From Gammaproteobacteria bacterium (GTDB lineage Bacteria > Pseudomonadota > Gammaproteobacteria > JABCZS01): 64,000 bases of DNA. How positions within the stretch are numbered: position 1 is the first letter of the stretch; each line of letters starts with the position of its first letter. Of the stretch, positions 4,925 to 18,475 are shown in pieces. The notes beneath the pieces are model-generated. The model saw only the letters and a program-made list of their open reading frames with translations. It ran no database searches and was not told where the DNA came from. The position numbers and the translations under genes are program-made. Location: the NCBI GenBank assembly GCA_013289085.1, contig JABDAR010000001.1:115864-179863 (forward strand), written 5' to 3'.

Positions 4925-4992
4925 TTCATTTTTCCTGTTAATTGTTGATTTATCATGATAACATACAACCCAAAGATTGGAAACAAGAATAA

Positions 4993-7900
4993 CTAATTTT
5001 TCATTAGATGATTTAGCAAAAGCTGCACAAAATCAATTCTATCTTGATCTTCAGGTAAGTCTTTGATAACTTTTAGCTTTTCAGCACCTTCAAGTTTATA
5101 TACCTTAGCTTCACTTTGGATCAGTTTAATAATCTTTGTAGGGTCGATATTTACTTTTTTAGCAAACTCTATTTTTCCGCCTTTTTTATTGAGATCTATT
5201 TTACTGATACCCATGGGATAAGCGTGTAATTTTAGCAAAGTAATGGCAAATAAGTTTTTCACGGCTTGTGGTAATAAACCAAATCTGTCGATTAATTCCA
5301 CTTGTAGTTCTTTTAAGCTGGTTTCATTGTCGGCATTGCTAATACGTTTATAAAATACTAAGCGACCATGCACATCTGGCATATAACTCTCGGGAATAAG
5401 CGCAGGTAGTTGTAGATTAATTTCAGTCACAGTATCACGTGTTAATAATAAATCTTCAAAGGTTTCACCATTTTTAAGAGACGTCACGGCGCGCTCTAAT
5501 AATTCCATATACAATGAAAAACCTATCGCTTGCAAATGGCCGCTTTGCTCTTCCCCTAAAAATTCTCCAGCGCCGCGAATTTCTAAATCATGAGTTGCAA
5601 GCGTAAAACCCATACCTAACTCTTCTACTGCGGCAATCGCATCTAAACGCTTTTGCGCATCAGCTGTCATTAGTTTTTTATCAGGCGTGAATAAATACGC
5701 ATATGCTTGGTGATGCGATCTGCCGACACGGCCACGCAATTGATGTAATTGCGCAAGTCCTAATTTATCCGCTCTATCAATAATCATAGTGTTTGCAGTC
5801 GGAATATCTATCCCAGTTTCAATAATGGTTGTACATACTAAAACATTAAAACGTTGATGATAAAAATCAGCAATAATTTTTTCTAAATTACGTTCACGCA
5901 TTTGTCCGTGGGCAAATTGAATATTTGCTTCTGGAATCAATTCAATTAAATGCTGCGCAGTTTTTTCTATGGTGTCAATATTATTATGTAAATAATACAC
6001 TTGCCCGCCGCGCATGATTTCGCGCAAAATGGCTTCACGGATGACATCATCATTTTGTAATGATACAAAAGTTTTAATGGCTAAGCGTTTTTTAGGTGGC
6101 GTTGCAATAATCGATAAATCACGAATGCCATGCATAGCCATATTGAGCGTACGCGGAATAGGCGTTGCCGTTAACGCTAAAATATCGACTTCAGCGCGCA
6201 GGGTTTTTAGTTTATCTTTTTGCTTTACTCCAAAGCGATGTTCTTCATCTAAAATCAATAAACCTAAATTTTTGAACTTTACATTTTGACTTAACAATGC
6301 GTGAGTGCCAATAATAATATCAACCTTACCTTCTGCAAGTGCAATTAAATCTTTTTCTTTTTCATTTTTGCTGCGAAAGCGTGATAATAAGGCAATACGT
6401 ACTGGCCAATCGGCAAAACGATCACAAAACGTATCATAATGTTGTTGTGATAATAAAGTCGTGGGGACGAGCACTGCTACTTGCCGATTACTATGTACTG
6501 CAATAAATGCAGCGCGCAGGGCGACTTCAGTTTTACCAAAGCCCACATCACCACAAATTAATCTATCCATAGGACGCGGCGCCATCATGTCTTTAATAAC
6601 AGCTTGAATGGCTTGAGTTTGATCAGGCGTTTCTTCAAATAAAAAACTGCTGGCAAACGTAACATATTGATTATCAGGTTCTGGATAGGCAAATCCTTGG
6701 CGTGCTTCACGTTTTGCATAAATATCCAGTAATTCCGCAGCCACATCTTTTATTTTCTCAGCTGCTTTTTGTTTAGCACGCTGCCAAGTTTGCGTGCCTA
6801 ATTTATTAAGTTCGGCATGGGTATCATCACTGCCACTGTAACGACTAATGAGATGGAGCGAATATACAGGCACATAAAGTTTATCGCCGCCTTGATATTC
6901 AAGGCTTAAAAATTCGGCATCATAATCGCCGACTTTAATGGTTTGTAAACCAAGATACCGGCCAATGCCATGATCAATATGGACTACAAATGATCCTATG
7001 GTGAGCTCCGCTAAACTTTTAACCATGGTATCACTGTCAGGACTGCGTTTTTTCTGACGTTGCGCAACTACAGGTTGCCCAAAAATTTCAGTCTCAGTAA
7101 TAATAATCAGTTTACGCTCAGGTAAAATAATCCCATTGATAAGCGGCGCTATTTCAATATTAACTGGAATTTTTAAGGGGGCTAATAAGCTTAATAAAGC
7201 TTCTCTACGACCCGCAGATTCTACATAAAATATTATTTTATAATCGGTTACTTCTTCTAAAAAATGTTGTAGCGGTAATAAGGGATTAGCAAGCTTGGTA
7301 TTAATACGGATATCCGGCAACGTTTTATATTCGATAGTTGGCACACGTAATTTTTCAAAGCGTTTTAATTGCTCAAATACTTGCTCAGGCTTTAAAAATA
7401 AACCTTCAGGCTTTAATAATGGTCTTGAAATATCATGACCATATTGCTCATAGCGTTTATTGACTTGTTTATAAAATTCAATTAAATCTTGCTGAATATT
7501 ACCAATTGTCACGACTTGTGTATTATGAGGTAAATAATCGGGTAAATAATTTATTTTTTCAAAAAATAACGGTAAATAATATTCAATGCCTGCAGGTACA
7601 CTGCCTTTGCTGATACCTTGATAAATAGCGCTTGCGCTAGGATCTCCTGTAAATGCATCGCGAAAGCTTTCTCGAAAGCGAGTCACGCTGTCTTTATCTA
7701 GCGAAAACTCACGCGCAGGTAATAATTCAATGCGGTCTATTTTTTCATGTGAGCGTTGCGTTTGCGGATCGAAAATGCGAATGGACTCTACTTCATTATC
7801 TAATAAATCGATGCGATAGGGAAAGGGATTCCCCATCGGGAAAATATCAATGATTGAACCGCGAATACTAAATTCGCCATGTGAAAATACTTCAGAAACG

Positions 7901-12418: not shown

Positions 12419-12808
12419 TTACTTTAGCAAGCGTATTGATTCATTGTATTGTGCAACAAGCGTATCGGCGGTTAACAAGGTAATGCCTTCAATCATTGAC
12501 TGGGCAATAAGAATGCGATCAAAGGGATCTTTATGAAGCGGGGGTAAGGTATCGATTGCGGCTGCGTGGGCGCTGTTAATTGATAGTTCGAGATATCCAT
12601 TGTCTAGTAAACCTCGACGTAAAGCATGAGGATCTGCACGAAAATCTTCTCGTTTTAATCCACGTTTAATAGCTACTTCCCAAATACTGGCTGGACTAAA
12701 TAGGAGCTCATGTTCCGGATTATTAAGTAAAGTGTGCGCCGTATCTGATAATTGCTCAGGTTGTCCTGCTGCCCATAATAAAAGATGAGTATCTAATAGA
12801 AACTTCAT
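12419..12808 (-). CDS. vapC: PIN-domain toxin VapC
   Basis: LLDTHLLLW N-terminal Asp and C-terminal TLLTADT motif. Overlaps the upstream antitoxin gene by 4 nt. Confidence 0.8.
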   Translation of the reverse strand: MKFLLDTHLLLWAAGQPEQLSDTAHTLLNNPEHELLFSPASIWEVAIKRGLKREDFRADPHALRRGLLDNGYLELSINSAHAAAIDTLPPLHKDPFDRILIAQSMIEGITLLTADTLVAQYNESIRLLK

Positions 12809-13050
12809 GCTTCACCATCAAATAATTGTTGAATTTCTTGACTTGCCATGTGATCAAAATCATCTGGTACCAGAATTTCACCACGCATGAAACCTAATCT
12901 TTTGATTCCCTCTCCAGTAGGCGCGGTAAGCGCAATCACTTTCACCATAGGTTTACCTGCTTTTGCAATGACAAATGGCTCGCCATGAGCAGCTTTTTCT
13001 ACCAATAGCGATAAATGAGTTTTAGCTTCATGAATATTAACGGTCCGCAT
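12805..13050 (-). CDS. Phd/YefM-family antitoxin
   Basis: Phd-type N-terminus (MRTVNIHEAKTHLSLLVEKAAHGEPFVI). Forms an operon with vapC. Confidence 0.75.
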   Translation of the reverse strand: MRTVNIHEAKTHLSLLVEKAAHGEPFVIAKAGKPMVKVIALTAPTGEGIKRLGFMRGEILVPDDFDHMASQEIQQLFDGEA

Positions 13051-13083: not shown

Positions 13084-13806
13084 TTAGTTCATATTTGCAT
13101 TAATTACAAGCGCTTTAATCTGTGCAATCTCAGCTTCCGCATCCTTTATTTGCGCCTTAAATGCATCACTTGCGACAATATTTTTTGCTAAGCTTTGGGC
13201 AAGTTTGACACTGCCTTCAATATCACTGGGGTAATGTACGCCACCCACAATTCGATCTTGGCCTAAGGATAAACCAGTTGCTAATAATTGATCGTGTCGG
13301 TCTGGAAATATTTCCGCATATACTAATGCCAGTGTCATGCCGCGTGTGCCATGACCGCTAGGGTATGAATAACTTTCTTCAATGGGAATCGCAGGTTTGA
13401 TATCTTTGTTGTCCTGATAAGGGCGTGGACGTTTATATTGTACTTTAAATGCATCAATAAAAATTCGAGCATCAGCCATTACCGTTTTCATTAAACTATA
13501 TAATTTTGGATAACGCGCTTCTTCAAAACGCACACCAAGGGCTTGATTAAAATAGCTGGGCTCCAAAGTCACACTGCCCCAAGCACGTTCTATATCATAA
13601 TAAGTACGAGAATTTTGCTCCCACATTAGAATCGCTAGATCTCTTGTCTTTGTTTCAGCATCAGCCGCAGGTGGCGGCAAGGTTTCAAGAGTAATATTTT
13701 GCGGGTCAATAAAAGTAGGGGTTTTAGTGATGGCAAGTGTACTTGCAAAAGCCGAAAAACTGAAAATAACGCTTAAAAATAATATCCCTAAATTACGGTG
13801 CTTCAT
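13084..13806 (-). CDS. Class A non-specific acid phosphatase (PAP2 family)
   Basis: Signal peptide. PAP2 motifs KxxxxxxRP (KRPRPY), PSGH and SRxxxxxHxxxD-like (VGGVHYPSD). Confidence 0.8.
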   Translation of the reverse strand: MKHRNLGILFLSVIFSFSAFASTLAITKTPTFIDPQNITLETLPPPAADAETKTRDLAILMWEQNSRTYYDIERAWGSVTLEPSYFNQALGVRFEEARYPKLYSLMKTVMADARIFIDAFKVQYKRPRPYQDNKDIKPAIPIEESYSYPSGHGTRGMTLALVYAEIFPDRHDQLLATGLSLGQDRIVGGVHYPSDIEGSVKLAQSLAKNIVASDAFKAQIKDAEAEIAQIKALVINANMN

Positions 13807-13838
13807 TATAGACTCCTTAAAAAAATATTAGACGGTCA

Positions 13839-15143
13839 TTACATCAAATAAACAATCTGTGCGCCAACAAAATCTGCTGAAGTTTCATAACTGCCAGTAA
13901 GATGCGTTGCGGGAACCGGCGTACCTGGGAACAGCGTGAGTAATAAATTTTGTTGAGAAAGTGAGCTATTGGCAAAAAAGCTATGCATATAGGCTAAATC
14001 AATGCGCATTAAATCATCCCAATTTTTGGGGGCAATACTTATGCCGATAGAGGCGTCGACGCGATCAGAATCAGGAGATTGTAATGTGCGCGTTTCATCT
14101 GTAATAGGTGATTGATCATAGGCAATACCAGCACGTAATTTAACAGTAGGGTTATATTGATAATTTGCGCCCAAAGCAAGACGCCAAGTATTTTCTAAAT
14201 CTAAAGGGATATCAGATTCAATTGGAGTCCCTAACTGTGCGGAAATAACATAATCATCCCAACGTCCCCAATGGGTAAATATTAAATCTGCTAACAATTC
14301 AATTTTAGGTGTTGCTTGATGAAAGAAACTTAATGTCGCGTAATCAGGTAATAAAAAATTTGAATTGGCCGCAGCAGGTTCAAAGCTGGGTGCATTCACG
14401 GCAGTGGAGGAAGTAGTTAAATAACCGTCAGTATTTTGATCAACAGGAAAAACATAGGCTAAACCCATACGCGTGTCGTCACTCCATTCATAGAGTAAAC
14501 CGACATTAGGATAAAATGCCAAACTATCGCCTGAATATTCAGTAAAAGCTTGTTCACCTTGTGGATCAGTAATTGTTCCAATAGCAAAATTCACTTCATG
14601 GGTAAAATACATAGCATTGACACCTAAACCGACCGATAATTCCTCTGTCATTTGTTTAGCTAAACTTAAATTACCATTATATGAATAGAGTTTACTTTGT
14701 ATGCCATTATATTTAACGGGTGTATTGCCATAATCAGTGACAATCCAATAAGGTGCAGTGATACTCATACCGAGCACCATATCTTCAGTAATAGGTTTGG
14801 CAATATGCAGTGCGGGAATTGGTGTTGACGGAATGCCAGAAGATATTTCTTGGCCGCTAGTATTAGGAATAGGATTGCCGGCACTATCAAATGCAGAATT
14901 AATTGTTAATGTTGAGTCTGGTATAGCATAAGTAATCGCACCGACCACTTGTCCTTCTTCAATTAACATTAAACCTGCTGGATTATAAAAACTAATACTG
15001 GCATCATCGCCCGCTGAAGCCGCACCTGCAAATGCATTCCCCATAGCTGATACACTTTGTTGGTCAACGCTAAGAAAACTTGCAAAACAAGTGTGTGAAG
15101 CTAACAATAAACTCGGTAATAAAACTTTTATCGTATTATTCAT
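13839..15143 (-). CDS. FadL/OMPP1-family outer-membrane transport protein
   Basis: Signal peptide followed by a FadL-type N-terminus (GNAFAGAASAGDDASISFYNPAGL). C-terminal aromatic residue. Confidence 0.7.
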   Translation of the reverse strand: MNNTIKVLLPSLLLASHTCFASFLSVDQQSVSAMGNAFAGAASAGDDASISFYNPAGLMLIEEGQVVGAITYAIPDSTLTINSAFDSAGNPIPNTSGQEISSGIPSTPIPALHIAKPITEDMVLGMSITAPYWIVTDYGNTPVKYNGIQSKLYSYNGNLSLAKQMTEELSVGLGVNAMYFTHEVNFAIGTITDPQGEQAFTEYSGDSLAFYPNVGLLYEWSDDTRMGLAYVFPVDQNTDGYLTTSSTAVNAPSFEPAAANSNFLLPDYATLSFFHQATPKIELLADLIFTHWGRWDDYVISAQLGTPIESDIPLDLENTWRLALGANYQYNPTVKLRAGIAYDQSPITDETRTLQSPDSDRVDASIGISIAPKNWDDLMRIDLAYMHSFFANSSLSQQNLLLTLFPGTPVPATHLTGSYETSADFVGAQIVYLM

Positions 15144-15167
15144 TAAATCACATCCTTGTTCAGCACG

Positions 15168-15974
15168 TTAAAAGTAGAAATTAACTCCAGCACCTATTTG
15201 CAGGCCACTTGGATTGAAAGTAAATTCATCAGTAACCGTAATTAAAAAACCATCATTTTTACCTTGAGATCCACTAATAGTGCTATTTTCATCTTCATAA
15301 AGCGCATAAAGTGCTTGCAAAGTGAAACTGATATTTTCACCAAAAAATCTTTCAAGACCTGCGCCAAATCTTACTCCAGTTAAATAAAACTTATCATAAG
15401 CAGTACTGATGGGGAATGTAGAATCGTTATTCGCCCAGGCATTGGTTACCGTTTCAAAGTGAGTAAAAATAATCCCAGCTTTAGCAAACACTAGCCATTC
15501 ATCTTCGTCAAAAAACAAGCCCTGTTTGAAGTCTGCACCAAAACTATATTGTGCTTTTGTACTTTGGGTAAAATTAATATTATTAGTATCACCGATAGAT
15601 CTGCCAAAAGTATCAAGAACAGTTTGATCAGAAAAACTTGCATCATGGGGTGCTGCAAATATTTCTATAGCGCTAAGCCAATCGTCATTTTCGTCCCAGC
15701 GCAGGTAACCACCGCCCCGTACTTCAACACTATAATCCGTTACATTATTATCAACATTAAAAGAGGTGGTTGTTTTATGACTTAAATCAGAAAGCGGAAT
15801 TTGATCTACATAGTTAATGTTAATATTATTATCTTGATCAAATTCCCAAATTGTCGCGGTAAAATCACCGCCGAGATAAAATCCATAATCATCTGGACCA
15901 TTTGATTCGCTATTTGCAAATGCGGAGAAGGTATTGCAGGCTAAACATCCTGTTAGTAATATCACTTTTTTCAT
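15168..15974 (-). CDS. Outer-membrane beta-barrel protein
   Basis: Signal peptide starting at the internal MKKVILL. Alternating amphipathic beta-strands. C-terminal FYF. Confidence 0.5.
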   Translation of the reverse strand: MKKVILLTGCLACNTFSAFANSESNGPDDYGFYLGGDFTATIWEFDQDNNININYVDQIPLSDLSHKTTTSFNVDNNVTDYSVEVRGGGYLRWDENDDWLSAIEIFAAPHDASFSDQTVLDTFGRSIGDTNNINFTQSTKAQYSFGADFKQGLFFDEDEWLVFAKAGIIFTHFETVTNAWANNDSTFPISTAYDKFYLTGVRFGAGLERFFGENISFTLQALYALYEDENSTISGSQGKNDGFLITVTDEFTFNPSGLQIGAGVNFYF

Positions 15975-16042
15975 GACGCTTTCCTTAAAGAAAGACAGCG
16001 TAATATAAGTGAAACTAGGAGTCAATTTTTATTGATTTAATA

Positions 16043-16264
16043 TTATAAAAATCCACGCTCTATCATCATTTTTTCAAGCAGATTTTCAGTCGTTAATTCA
16101 CCATTGGGTTTTTCAAAGTAGAGGATGCCGTTGATGGTATAGGAGTTAGGCACGCCTAATTGACGGTTGCGCTCTTGCGCATTATGCACAGCACGATTGC
16201 CGATGCGAGTGAGTTCTTGACCAGTTTTATAGAGTTCAAGAAGTTGCTGATCATTAATGTCCAT
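16043..16264 (-). CDS. Small hypothetical protein coupled to the zeta-like kinase (possible antitoxin)
   Basis: 73 aa. Its ATG lies inside the last codons of the kinase gene (11-nt overlap). No recognisable family. Confidence 0.4.
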   Translation of the reverse strand: MDINDQQLLELYKTGQELTRIGNRAVHNAQERNRQLGVPNSYTINGILYFEKPNGELTTENLLEKMMIERGFL

Positions 16265-16877
16265 GAATATTTTCCTGCTTTAAATTTTCTAAAAATAATT
16301 GAAATAAGTTTTCATCAGCAATCGTTTGTTGTTCATTAGCACCAGAACAAATTTCATGAAATGTGCTATTAGAATTATAAAGTAAGTACCACTGATTGAC
16401 GAGTTGCTTGTATCTATACCAAAAATTAAGTTTTGCTCGATAATAACGTCTTTTAACATCTTCAGTAGGTACAAAATGTCCACCCGTTAATGTGCGCTCT
16501 TGAACACGCGCAACACAGGCTTCAGGGCTTTGTAAAAATACAAACGATAAAATAATATGATAGCGAGCTTTATTTAGCTGTTGAATAACCCGCTGAAAAC
16601 CTATTCCTGACAAAGTTGTTTCAATGATTAAATCATCACCACTGCTAATATGCTGGGATACTTTATCAATAAACAAACGTCCCGCTTGGATTTTAACTAG
16701 CGAAGGCGCCTTTGCATTAAGTTCATATGCAATAGCATCAGCGCCAAGATATTTAAAAGGGTGAATCTTTTGGTATTCCATGGCAAGCGTTGTTTTGCCA
16801 ACGCCATTAGGGCCACAGACGATGATGGCATTTGGATTAGTTTGGGACATTTCCATATTATAACGTAATTGGGACAT
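16254..16877 (-). CDS. Zeta-toxin-family P-loop kinase
   Basis: Walker A motif GPNGVGKTT. Zeta/PezT-like C-terminal HFVPTEDVKRRY motif. About 200 aa. Confidence 0.65.
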   Translation of the reverse strand: MSQLRYNMEMSQTNPNAIIVCGPNGVGKTTLAMEYQKIHPFKYLGADAIAYELNAKAPSLVKIQAGRLFIDKVSQHISSGDDLIIETTLSGIGFQRVIQQLNKARYHIILSFVFLQSPEACVARVQERTLTGGHFVPTEDVKRRYYRAKLNFWYRYKQLVNQWYLLYNSNSTFHEICSGANEQQTIADENLFQLFLENLKQENIHGH

Positions 16878-17051
16878 AAAAGCCTTTAGATAGAATTTTG
16901 CTTTAGTATTATTACCATAATAACATTAATGATGTAAATAAATCAATTATTGATCAATAAAGATTTTACATGATACTATTAAATTAACATAAGTGATCTA
17001 ATGGTTATCTGTTGCTATATTGATTTCATATTTATTTGTGGCTATAATTAA

Positions 17052-17285
17052 ATGCTAAAGATTGATTTTGATTTAAACAAATCTCAAAAGAATATTAATG
17101 AGTGTGGCTTGTCTTTTGAGATGGCTTATTATTTTGATTGGGGCGGTGCTTTATATGCGCAAGATAATAGGAGTCTATATTCTGAGGATCGTTTTGTTGC
17201 AATAGGCTATTTAGATAAGCGATTGCATGTATTATGTTTTACGCCAATTTCGCAAAGCAAACTTACGAGAAATAAAGCGTTATGA
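17052..17285 (+). CDS. brnT: BrnT-family (DUF497) toxin
   Basis: DUF497 N-terminus (FDLNKSQKNINECGLSFEMA). Overlaps the downstream antitoxin gene by 4 nt. Confidence 0.65.
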   Translation: MLKIDFDLNKSQKNINECGLSFEMAYYFDWGGALYAQDNRSLYSEDRFVAIGYLDKRLHVLCFTPISQSKLTRNKAL

Positions 17286-17587
17286 AAAAGAAACCACTAA
17301 CTGATCATTTAGGACAGGTAAGAGAATTACATTTTGAAGATATTGAAGCTATGCGCCCGGCGCAGGAAGTCTTGCCACCTGAACTTGTAGAGCGATTACC
17401 AAAACGAAAACGTGGTCAACGTGGCGTGCAAAAATGTCCAACAAAAATTGCTTTAAATGTGCGCTATAGCCCAGAAGTGATAGAGTATTTTAAATCTACT
17501 GGAATAGGTTGGCAGAAACGCATGGATAATGCCTTAAAGGAGTGGATGGTAGAGCATCATCATGCAGTAAGTCAGCATAAGCTGTAG
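17282..17587 (+). CDS. brnA: BrnA-family antitoxin
   Basis: BrnA C-terminal motif (NVRYSPEVIEYFKSTGIGWQKRMDNALKEWM). Confidence 0.7.
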   Translation: MKKKPLTDHLGQVRELHFEDIEAMRPAQEVLPPELVERLPKRKRGQRGVQKCPTKIALNVRYSPEVIEYFKSTGIGWQKRMDNALKEWMVEHHHAVSQHKL

Positions 17588-17621: not shown

Positions 17622-18440
17622 TTAGATGTGCGATTTACGAGGGATTTTAATTGATTTAACACCTTGTTCAAATGCTGCTCGCATTTGTGACATTAATTCT
17701 TCTGTGTCTTTCACAAGTTGTGATTTGCTGGATTTATTGTTATGCCATTGAGGGGCTATATAGGGCAGGGTTGTAGAAGAGATTCCCGAAAAAGAAGAGT
17801 TTTTTTTTGAGCCGGGGGGAGGTGCGATTAATTCATTAATTTCAGTGTTTAAGGTATGACATTCCCTTTCCATATCATCTTTAAATTGTTTATAGCCTAC
17901 TACGTCTTGTTTTAGTATGTCACGCATCTTTTCAATATCTTTTCGTTCAGATAAGAAAATATCAGTTTGATCGGAGTTGAAAAATTCATTAAGGTTATTG
18001 ATTAGACTGCTCGCTTCTTTTACGACTACAGTGTTATTTTGATGGGTGATGACTAATTGTGCTAATTCAGATTTAAGTTGTTTTAATCGATTTAATTTTT
18101 CATGACTTGGATTTGTATCAGTAGTATTAGAATTTTTTAAGCGGGACAAATAAGCATGAATATTATTAAATTCATCACAATAAGTTTTAAGGGGTGCTTG
18201 CAACTCATTTATTACCAAATGCTTTTGCGAGTCAAAATAATCTGCCTCATCCTTAAATGTTTTAACATATTCTGTATAGCCTTTTAGGCAGCCGTTATTA
18301 TGTTCGTGCTGAAAGTTAGCCAGCATTTTGATTTTTTCATTTAATTGAGAGATATAACTTTTATCAAGCGACTTTAGTTCGTCTTGTCTTGCGAACAATG
18401 CGTTTAAGCGGGTATTAGGATTTTTATTTTCTTTTGACAT
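17622..18440 (-). CDS. Hypothetical coiled-coil protein
   Basis: 272 aa, heptad-rich, no domain recognised. Last gene of a co-directional four-gene block. Confidence 0.5.
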   Translation of the reverse strand: MSKENKNPNTRLNALFARQDELKSLDKSYISQLNEKIKMLANFQHEHNNGCLKGYTEYVKTFKDEADYFDSQKHLVINELQAPLKTYCDEFNNIHAYLSRLKNSNTTDTNPSHEKLNRLKQLKSELAQLVITHQNNTVVVKEASSLINNLNEFFNSDQTDIFLSERKDIEKMRDILKQDVVGYKQFKDDMERECHTLNTEINELIAPPPGSKKNSSFSGISSTTLPYIAPQWHNNKSSKSQLVKDTEELMSQMRAAFEQGVKSIKIPRKSHI

Positions 18441-18475
18441 ATTTTTTTATCCTTAATCACATTCTATCATATATT

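Follow-up and report, generated by a model that had tools for sequence, protein, structure and literature searches.

A short zeta-like kinase gene with an overlapping downstream partner: a putative toxin-first toxin–antitoxin family

Introduction

A 64,000-nt stretch of DNA from a Gammaproteobacteria bacterium (GenBank assembly GCA_013289085.1, contig JABDAR010000001.1, positions 115,864 to 179,863; hereafter the window) carries a gene for a 207-aa zeta-toxin-like kinase that is followed by, and overlaps, an open reading frame (ORF) of 73 aa. The original prediction, made from the sequence alone, described this arrangement as toxin-first and unlike that of epsilon/zeta or PezAT, and suggested with caution that it might be an uncharacterised toxin–antitoxin (TA) or abortive-infection variant. 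The question raised by the locus is therefore whether the small gene is real, whether it belongs with the kinase gene and, if so, what the two encode together.

The pair is probably an autonomous, toxin-first and translationally coupled TA module of the zeta superfamily with a new antitoxin family, a reading held with modest confidence. The kinase belongs to the superfamily by homology and fold, and the small gene is real and conserved. Gene order and overlap are conserved as well, the kinase decays while the small ORF is kept, the pair is mobile, and natural fusions of the two proteins occur. The features of the pair, by window position, are as follows.

16254-16877, minus strand: kinase gene (ORF, 207 aa), a short zeta/AvrRxo1-like P-loop phosphotransferase and putative toxin
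16043-16264, minus strand: small ORF (73 aa), putative antitoxin or kinase-binding partner
16254-16276, minus strand: junction, a candidate for translational coupling, with the AGGAA Shine-Dalgarno sequence, the small-ORF ATG and the kinase stop codon TAA
16791-16814, minus strand: Walker A motif (P-loop) GPNGVGKT, kinase residues 22-29, recognised from the sequence
16737-16739, minus strand: Asp47 of the ADAIA motif, putative catalytic base, invariant in an alignment of 30 homologs
16440-16472, minus strand: VPTEDVKRRYY, kinase residues 136-146, C-terminal to the lid arginines R124/R128 and GGH

The 207-aa kinase with its Walker A motif and the 73-aa ORF that starts in the last kinase codons were both found, on the minus strand, where the original prediction had placed them. 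The genes overlap by 11 nt (ATGGACATTAA, 16254-16264). The kinase stop codon TAA occupies 16254-16256 and the ATG of the small ORF occupies 16262-16264, within the last kinase codons (…CAT GGA CAT TAA). The AGGAA Shine-Dalgarno sequence of the small ORF lies at 16272-16276, 7 nt 5' of its ATG. With Shine-Dalgarno sequence and ATG both inside the end of the kinase gene, the second gene would be read from the shared mRNA by translational coupling.

Upstream of the window kinase, neither an epsilon-like nor a PezA-like ORF was found, either among the ORFs or by Pfam scan, in agreement with the earlier observation. Instead, an AT-rich spacer of 174 bp (16878-17051) separates the kinase from the divergent genes brnT and brnA (Pfam E-values 8e-13 and 1.5e-16). 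Similarly, neither epsilon nor PezA was found among the neighbours inspected at related loci.

Linkage of the kinase and small genes across genomes

Related loci were sampled from the side of the small ORF with one genome per species; 285 loci were found, of which 80 were retrieved and 77 could be assessed. An intact kinase gene lies directly upstream on the same strand in 54 of the 77. At these 54 loci the junction is an overlap of 1-26 nt or an in-frame fusion, except at locus L072, where the genes were called with a 7-nt gap. TAATG is the commonest junction, and ATGA and overlaps of 8, 11, 14 and 19-26 nt also occur; in Poribacteria, GGAGG is found inside the C-terminal codons of the kinase. 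The small ORF was upstream of the kinase at none of the 80 loci. Because nearly all intact junctions overlap or fuse, the overlap in the window is not due to chance. The closest relative (L118, 81% identity) has the identical 11-nt overlap in another gene context.

The linkage was also seen from the side of the kinase. At every one of the 13 metagenomic kinase loci whose downstream sequence is long enough, the small ORF is present, once in a divergent, helix-only version. Kinase homologs of approximately 25-40% identity are present on 378 plasmids, where they are annotated as 'zeta toxin family protein' or 'AAA family ATPase'. The six best plasmid matches inspected, from Persephonella, Nostoc, Legionella pneumophila (a conjugative plasmid), Synechocystis (pSYSG), Geminocystis and Crocosphaera, all have an overlapping downstream 'hypothetical protein' of 59-71 aa. 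The Persephonella protein is a clear member of the small-ORF family. A joint alignment of the remaining five (cyanobacterial and Legionella) is a remote match to the family profile (hhalign probability 82.5%, E 1e-5).

The pair was found in at least eight bacterial groups, with Poribacteria predominant; the others include Planctomycetota, Acidobacteriota, Bacteroidota, Rhodothermales, Eisenbacteria, Thiomargarita, other Gammaproteobacteria and Aquificota. Conservation of the pair in other genomes, on which the original prediction had been made to depend, therefore extends across phyla and to plasmids.

More distant kinases from Zymomonas and Rhizobium (31-33% identity) have a small ORF upstream instead, so the kinase-first architecture tracks a sequence clade. 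These upstream ORFs (L114 1271-1507, Zymomonas pZA1001; L115 1324-1497, Rhizobium pRt1078) resemble the window small protein by eye in the segments AAQEHLEAGFPVYY and EIGREAIAERRRLGLP, and the C-terminal GRSYVELDQHGNIVRHP hairpin of a ParD-like antitoxin (L122 827-1198, Rhodococcus pRHL1) also recalls it. Identity of the small protein with the upstream Zymomonas and Rhizobium ORFs, or with the C-terminal toxin-binding part of the ParD-like antitoxin, was not supported (hhalign probabilities 0.5-22%, not significant), although the likenesses may mark a toxin-binding element common to these proteins.

Natural fusions, in which an intact kinase carries the small protein as a C-terminal domain, were found in P0194, P0198 and P0277 (full length) and at L028 (2416-3192), with truncated examples in P0204 and P0219. 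The L028 fusion is in frame and arose by loss of the stop codon of a TAATG junction. Such sequences imply that the kinase and the small protein associate physically.

The small protein

A profile was built from nine close homologs of the small ORF and compared with 1.84 billion cluster representatives, of which 509 matched at E<=1e-3 and 251 at E<=1e-10. The conserved core of the family is ExxRIGNRAVxxAQEExRxLGxPNxY-x-NG-xxxxExPxGE. No curated family in Pfam, NCBIfam, PADLOC or PHROGs was matched, so the earlier remark that the ORF has no recognisable family holds for these libraries, yet the ORF belongs to a large family that is uncurated. Sub-threshold Pfam matches to DUF5118 in 27 of 119 family members (best E 0.0023) were judged spurious, probably reflecting local similarity in a hairpin. 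Against PDB sequences the profile gave chance matches only (ribosomal protein L6, E 0.24).

Comparison with a relative of 80-85% identity gave a ratio of nonsynonymous to synonymous substitution rates (dN/dS) of 0.07 in the small ORF and 0.19 in the kinase. Purifying selection acts on both genes, and its strength in the small ORF shows that this gene is real. The shortness of the ORF and its absence from curated families would fit a chance overlapping frame beside a kinase that alone is real. This vanishingly improbable reading is refuted by the conservation data, namely the 509 representatives, the dN/dS value and the conserved Shine-Dalgarno sequence and overlap, and it also disagrees with a confidently predicted fold and with independent gene calls and RefSeq annotation in relatives. 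A type III RNA antitoxin or other non-coding RNA was also rejected, as the locus gave no Rfam match and no meaningful tandem repeats.

The AlphaFold2 (AF2) model of the small protein, made with 119 sequences, has a mean predicted local distance difference test (pLDDT) score of 95.8. A helix of 34 residues (3-36) is followed by a beta-hairpin (41-44, 47-51) and a short strand, and the model ends in a C-terminal helix (62-69). Foldseek returned nothing significant for this model in the PDB (best E 0.77) or in BFVD (best E 0.038), and as modelled the fold is unlike those of epsilon, PezA, ng-epsilon1 and Arc1. Reading the alignment together with the model places the conserved polar residues R20, N23, R24, Q30, E31 and R34 on one face of the long helix, which suggests a binding surface.

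Decay and mobility of the pair

At approximately 15 loci the kinase gene is frameshifted, truncated, internally deleted or disrupted by an insertion sequence beside an intact small ORF, and at approximately 8 loci the small ORF is an orphan with no kinase. Initial classing had given 14 and 9 loci respectively, and inspection of L061 shifted the counts. No intact kinase without a small ORF was seen among the 13-19 kinases sampled. Fisher p for this asymmetry is 0.03-0.005, a value limited by ascertainment and by the relatedness of the genomes. A transposase-like ORF takes the place of the kinase at L049. At L031, L120 and L121 the gene next after recQ is the small ORF, whereas in relatives the order is recQ, kinase, small ORF.

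Two lineages show particular arrangements of the pair. In Acidobacteriota/Thermoanaerobaculia (L014, L021, L053, L091 and L064) it comes immediately after recQ, which it abuts or overlaps on the same strand. On a Poribacteria chromosome (L068 2317-3731), an ORF of approximately 60 aa, taken as a kinase remnant, is present three times in tandem, each copy followed by an intact 76-aa small ORF, and a nucleotidyltransferase (MNT-like) gene lies 3' of the array.

The pair behaves as a mobile unit. Conjugative plasmids carry it, it also occurs next to Tn3, and two loci each come from at least two Poribacteria assemblies. No third partner is universal among the 118 flanking genes, which belong to 81 Pfam families. 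A conserved third gene was rejected as a candidate, the radical SAM and AP_endonuc_2 flanks being restricted to one Poribacteria locus type. TA and defence genes often adjoin the pair. Within 5 kb in the window these are BrnTA and Phd-PIN, and at relatives they include MazE-PIN, a HigA-like antidote and PIN and MNT genes, while subunits of restriction-modification (RM) systems and a DarT-like/macro pair are found near the pair on pSYSG.

At the pSYSG locus (L112 1-4456, sll8001-ssl8005), the pair sll8004/ssl8003 is preceded by an overlapping gene of the nucleotidyltransferase family. Genes for a DUF4433 (DarT-like) protein and a macro-domain protein come after it, beside the S subunit of a type I RM system. 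This region has been called a defence island, in which ssl8003/sll8004 were listed as TA-related but unclassified (PMC4963859).

Kinase decay with retention of the small ORF, variable neighbourhoods rich in TA and defence genes and multiple copies within at least two Poribacteria assemblies are indirect signs of a TA module and agree with the cautious suggestion of an uncharacterised variant. In an alternative reading, the two genes encode an obligate two-subunit, non-toxic kinase with a dispensable accessory function, whose small subunit activates or stabilises the enzyme or targets it to a substrate. Such an enzyme seems unlikely. It would account for a small protein that is more conserved than the kinase and confidently folded alone, for the recurrence of intact kinases with the small protein as a C-terminal domain, and for 14 Poribacteria loci in which the pair is tightly packed between radical SAM/SPASM and AP_endonuc_2 genes; neighbours are not conserved beyond single lineages, however. 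A useless subunit should decay with its partner, so the small ORFs that are common as orphans or beside dead kinases, with no lone kinase seen, count against it, as do the presence of the pair on plasmids and in TA and defence islands and the toxicity of the related Rv0366c-type kinases (PMC6362051).

Family, motifs and fold of the kinase

The window kinase passes the Pfam gathering cutoffs for AAA_33 (37.3 bits, cutoff 27) and, with a slightly lower score, for Zeta_toxin (PF06414; 33.7 bits, cutoff 22.3), the latter match spanning residues 48-149. A word-indexed search yielded 374 homologs, mostly of 195 aa. The N-terminus of the window kinase is 12 residues longer than in most of these, an extension common to its closest relative, P0011.

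In the 30 homologs aligned, G22, P23, N24, G25, G27, K28 and T29 of the P-loop are invariant, as are D47, QAGR, E86-T-T-L-S-G, R124/R128, GGH, P137, D140 and R143/R144. Since the catalytic residues are invariant, the kinase is predicted to be active. Asp47 would be the catalytic base and the counterpart of zeta D67, PezT D66 and Rv0366c D36. It aligns with the Asp of VISSDF in the polynucleotide kinase-phosphatase of Clostridium thermocellum (CthPnkp) and, in a Rhodococcus kinase of the PezT-Mtb type, with the motif ADVIA. The residue roles of zeta/PezT-type kinases, and the definition of the GTxR motif that binds UDP-N-acetylglucosamine (UDP-GlcNAc or UNAG), follow a published account (PMC6362051).

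The VPxExxKRRY motif, a putative zeta/PezT signature that the original prediction had taken as a C-terminal mark of these toxins, is present, with P137, D140, R143 and R144 invariant in the kinase clade and the motif inside the match to the Zeta_toxin hidden Markov model. The counterpart in the Rhodococcus homolog is GGHHVPEEKIRARF. After the conserved Glu, at the GTxR site, the window kinase has E86-T-T-L-S-G, without Arg. As ETTLSG replaces the sugar-nucleotide motif, UDP-GlcNAc is an unlikely substrate.

The AF2 model of the kinase (pLDDT 86, predicted TM-score 0.84) places the kinase domain from residue 16 onwards. Foldseek against the PDB ranked AvrRxo1 first (TM-score 0.66-0.69), followed by PezT (0.61), zeta and CthPnkp (0.59, or 0.69 when normalised to the target; root-mean-square deviation [rmsd] 3.2 Å), all with probability 1.0. 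The matches to 2p5t, 3q8x and 1gvn (probability 1.0, TM-score 0.57-0.62) have an rmsd of 8-10 Å, because insertions of the zeta/PezT structures are missing in the window kinase. Passing of the Pfam thresholds and the match of the fold to AvrRxo1, PezT and zeta together bear out the assignment as a zeta-toxin-like kinase.

The kinase is not a housekeeping nucleoside monophosphate or small-molecule kinase such as guanylate, adenylate, gluconate or shikimate kinase, the outcome that might have undone the original prediction. The NCBIfam equivalogs for guanylate, adenylate, gluconate and dephospho-CoA kinases gave at most 18.6 bits against a cutoff of 263. The distribution is patchy, includes plasmids and comprises more than one locus in at least two Poribacteria assemblies, unlike that of universal single-copy housekeeping kinases. 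The NCBIfam PezT equivalog likewise scored 15.7 bits against a cutoff of 470.

By sequence profile, the CthPnkp kinase domain and Pnkp1 are the nearest solved proteins (E 1e-3 to 1e-2) and come before PezT, and the kinase also matches PHROG ATPase/polynucleotide kinase families. These matches, together with the target-normalised TM-score of CthPnkp, would fit a polynucleotide kinase that acts on RNA or DNA 5'-OH ends to repair or process nucleic acids and has the small protein as its adaptor. That role is very unlikely, as AvrRxo1 and PezT rank equal or higher in Foldseek by E-value and query-normalised TM-score while covering more of the protein, and the neighbourhoods show no recurrent ligase, phosphatase or Hen1 partner. 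Polynucleotide kinase (Pnk) enzymes have a D-x-x-R motif, with Arg three residues past the catalytic Asp; the ADAIA motif of the window kinase has Ala, not Arg, at this position. Neither the decay pattern nor the TA-island context would be expected of a repair enzyme.

Comparison with known zeta-type systems

The best structural match of the window kinase is AvrRxo1, the zeta-superfamily kinase toxin of the AvrRxo1-Arc1 system of Xanthomonas oryzae pv. oryzicola (4z8q/4z8u; PMC4938570). There the antitoxin gene lies directly downstream, so that the window pair, with its 11-nt overlap, shares the toxin-first order. This order is accordingly unlike that of epsilon/zeta and PezAT, as had been claimed, but it is not unprecedented in the zeta superfamily, since AvrRxo1-Arc1, the sole precedent for the architecture, has it. 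AvrRxo1 is also often inactivated with the downstream Arc1 gene intact (PMC4938570), the same pattern as in the window family. The kinases share approximately 16% sequence identity. AvrRxo1 is a type III-secreted protein of 414-421 aa with an N-terminal secretion region, whereas the window kinase has 207 aa, with its kinase domain beginning at residue 16. The substrate of AvrRxo1 is NAD. Arc1 (81-98 aa) is predicted to have three or four short helices and carries the motif KExFD...YExxYY; the window small protein lacks this motif and is predicted to form one long helix, a hairpin and a short helix. Foldseek of its model against PDB chains gave no match at E<0.7.

In type of kinase, the window protein resembles PezT-Mtb (Rv0366c-Rv0367c) and the kinase of Mycobacterium sp. 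MHSD3, which are short (approximately 195 aa) AAA_33/Zeta_toxin kinases. These share with it GPNGxGK[ST], a catalytic Asp approximately 20 residues further on, E-T-x-x-S, the lid Arg and GGH, and Rv0366c also lacks the UNAG-binding GTxR motif (PMC6362051). Mycobacterial kinases of the Rv0366c/MHSD3 type are toxic and are neutralised by the adjacent gene (PMC6362051, PMC5728571). This type was represented by the kinase of Rhodococcus jostii pRHL1, a species listed as carrying a pair of the Rv0366c/Rv0367c type; it is a 192-aa AAA_33/Zeta_toxin protein with a ParD_like antitoxin upstream. The window kinase aligns with it at 29% identity (E 9e-16), all motifs included, and this homology links it to the only short zeta-like kinases that are experimentally toxic. 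The antitoxin of PezT-Mtb differs from the window partner, being encoded upstream, approximately 120-130 aa long and provided with an N-terminal ParD-like ribbon-helix-helix (RHH) domain, while the window partner is downstream, has 73 aa and contains no recognised RHH. Compared with the Rhodococcus ParD-like antitoxin, the small-protein profile gave no significant similarity (hhalign probability 0.5%).

The epsilon/zeta system of pSM19035 and PezAT of Streptococcus pneumoniae have in common with the window kinase the kinase fold, the Walker A motif, the catalytic Asp and the lid Arg. Their toxins are larger (approximately 250-290 aa) and contain the UNAG-binding GTxR motif that is absent from the 207-aa window kinase. 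Their antitoxins, a three-helix bundle in epsilon and a helix-turn-helix (HTH) domain plus bundle in PezA, are encoded upstream, in contrast to the downstream partner in the window, and neutralise the toxin through direct binding, as would the small protein of the window pair.

Fusions in the window family have a precedent in EzeT of E. coli, a zeta-type kinase and its inhibitor in one polypeptide (PMC10532202, PMC4963859). The antitoxin domain of EzeT is N-terminal, whereas in the window-family fusions the small domain sits at the C-terminus, in keeping with the gene order, and is unrelated in sequence. The CthPnkp kinase domain (4gp6/4gp7), the closest solved structure by profile (E approximately 1e-3) and a compact match, belongs to an RNA-repair enzyme of several domains, which also has phosphatase and ligase modules, and shows neither a small coupled partner nor TA-like genomic behaviour. 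The pair is closest to AvrRxo1-Arc1 in architecture and to PezT-Mtb in kinase type, yet lacks defining features of each. A literature search on zeta toxins with downstream antitoxins returned general zeta and TA papers, with no description of this pair.

Proposed mechanism and viral copies

The first gene encodes a P-loop phosphotransferase of the zeta/PezT/AvrRxo1 superfamily, which is predicted to be active and belongs to the short (approximately 195 aa) AAA_33 branch that includes the toxic Rv0366c type. With ATP, the enzyme may phosphorylate an essential nucleotide-containing metabolite or a nucleic acid, and from its motifs the substrate is probably other than UDP-GlcNAc. We infer from the related systems that the kinase is toxic and that the small protein, a compact helix and beta-hairpin made from the same mRNA, binds it directly and holds it inactive. 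By analogy with epsilon, PezA and Arc1, the most likely mode of binding would place the polar helix face over the nucleotide/substrate cleft.

Several observations weigh against a TA module of this kind. Antitoxins usually evolve faster than their toxins and are partly disordered, and the small protein is atypical on both counts. It is as conserved as the kinase or more so, with 85% against 80% and 78% against 64% identity in close relatives and 50-60% against 40-50% across phyla, and it is predicted by its model to fold stably by itself. Library scans recognised no DNA-binding domain in it (no HTH, RHH or AbrB), so that there is no evident sign of classical autoregulation. The asymmetry of decay rests on few loci that are phylogenetically non-independent, and some of the frameshifts may be assembly errors. 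The fusions are explained as easily by an obligate two-subunit enzyme, and the kinase-first clade is known from sequences and models alone.

As a special case of a TA module, the pair could serve in abortive infection, with the infected cell being killed or arrested once a phage has depleted or displaced the small protein. In this scheme, some phages would counter the pair with a small-protein copy of their own. The probability of this role is low. RM subunits and the DarT-like/macro pair on pSYSG, Eco57I and N6_N4 methylase genes near the pair in Poribacteria and DUF4276 neighbours are consistent with it, as is a solo small-protein copy on the predicted viral contig L109 among RNA ligase and Pnk-like genes. 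PADLOC matched neither protein, however, the evidence from neighbourhoods is anecdotal, and only two viral contigs among 2.9 million carry the small ORF, one of these copies being a pseudogene.

The two viral copies differ in state. Contig L109 (975-7095; IMG/VR contig 3300028833_000316), a predicted phage, has an intact 58-aa family member at 4992-5168 (E 5e-28 against the profile) and no kinase of the window family. The gene lies between Rnl1-like/Rnl2-like RNA ligase genes and a gene for a 132-aa Pnk-like ATPase that is no more than a remote relative of the window kinase (hhalign 91.6%); judging from its gene content, this group may be an anti-defence cluster. In L108 (4992-5195; IMG/VR contig 3300048574_000411) an in-frame TAA stands at the codon of the invariant Gln30 (CAA to TAA). 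Recoding of the stop codon was rejected, and since the TAA falls on a CAA (Gln) position, a plain nonsense mutation in a pseudogene is more likely.

A more extended proposal takes the small protein as a dedicated and ancient inhibitor of a short zeta-like kinase clade that does not target cell-wall precursors. The pair would then be an abortive-infection switch, phage copies such as that of L109 would be decoys, and the strong conservation would reflect a second, conserved interaction, such as the sensing of a phage or host factor. This combination is quite improbable.

Other features of the window

Two promoter-like sites were recognised near the pair.

16917-16946, minus strand: TTGATT-18-TATTAT with TG, a consensus match only, approximately 40 nt 5' of the kinase start in the spacer shared with brnT
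16374-16402, minus strand: TCGTCA-17-TATAAT (10/12), a consensus match only, inside the kinase gene and 110 nt 5' of the small ORF

The region contains eight promoter-like sites against 5.8 +/- 2.9 in shuffles, so that the match in the spacer is not significant by itself. The site at 16374-16402 could, speculatively, be a candidate for an antitoxin-only promoter. The only inverted repeats in the 174-bp spacer are short and AT-rich.

Divergent from the kinase, BrnT toxin (77 aa) and BrnA antitoxin (101 aa) genes (17052-17587, plus strand) overlap by 4 nt and are also toxin-first. A Phd/YefM-type antitoxin gene (81 aa) overlaps a PIN-domain toxin gene (129 aa) at 12419-13050 on the minus strand. 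Counting the kinase pair, three TA modules lie in approximately 5 kb of a chromosomal region that also bears mfd and an NAD synthase gene. Genes for an outer-membrane beta-barrel protein, a FadL/Toluene_X-family porin and a PAP2 phosphatase follow 3' of the pair on the same strand (13084-16025, minus strand). The small ORF and the gene for the outer-membrane protein are 69 nt apart by the Joint Genome Institute (JGI) gene call, and no terminator-like site was found in this gap.

Two regions of the minus strand (17622-26651 and 37030-42675) contain a run of large proteins without a Pfam match (272, 992, 528 and 1116 aa). The 992-aa protein has two near-identical segments of approximately 50 aa (NVTYNGTPLK.DINLNNQEEDTDQ.QNLSHNILSPEMQ.AT.AVQQFI), and a 1881-aa protein with Lipase_3 and WD40 domains is encoded in the same regions. 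These large proteins look like the products of effector-like genes, as in an intracellular, Legionellales-like bacterium.

Implications

Zeta-type kinases are a major toxin superfamily. The latest survey of zeta antitoxins examined upstream genes only, and the present clade has therefore been left as a 'zeta toxin family protein' beside a 'hypothetical protein' (PMC10532202). It is now defined by a conserved overlapping downstream partner, a family of approximately 500 sequence clusters outside Pfam, NCBIfam, PADLOC and PHROGs, with members in a conjugative plasmid of L. pneumophila, in Synechocystis pSYSG and in sponge-symbiont Poribacteria. A kinase gene that comes first and is overlapped by a small ORF provides a simple annotation rule across hundreds of genomes. 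If the favoured reading as a TA module is true, the small protein would represent a new antitoxin fold and the pair a second toxin-first architecture in the zeta superfamily, with a set of kinases whose substrate is probably other than UDP-GlcNAc.

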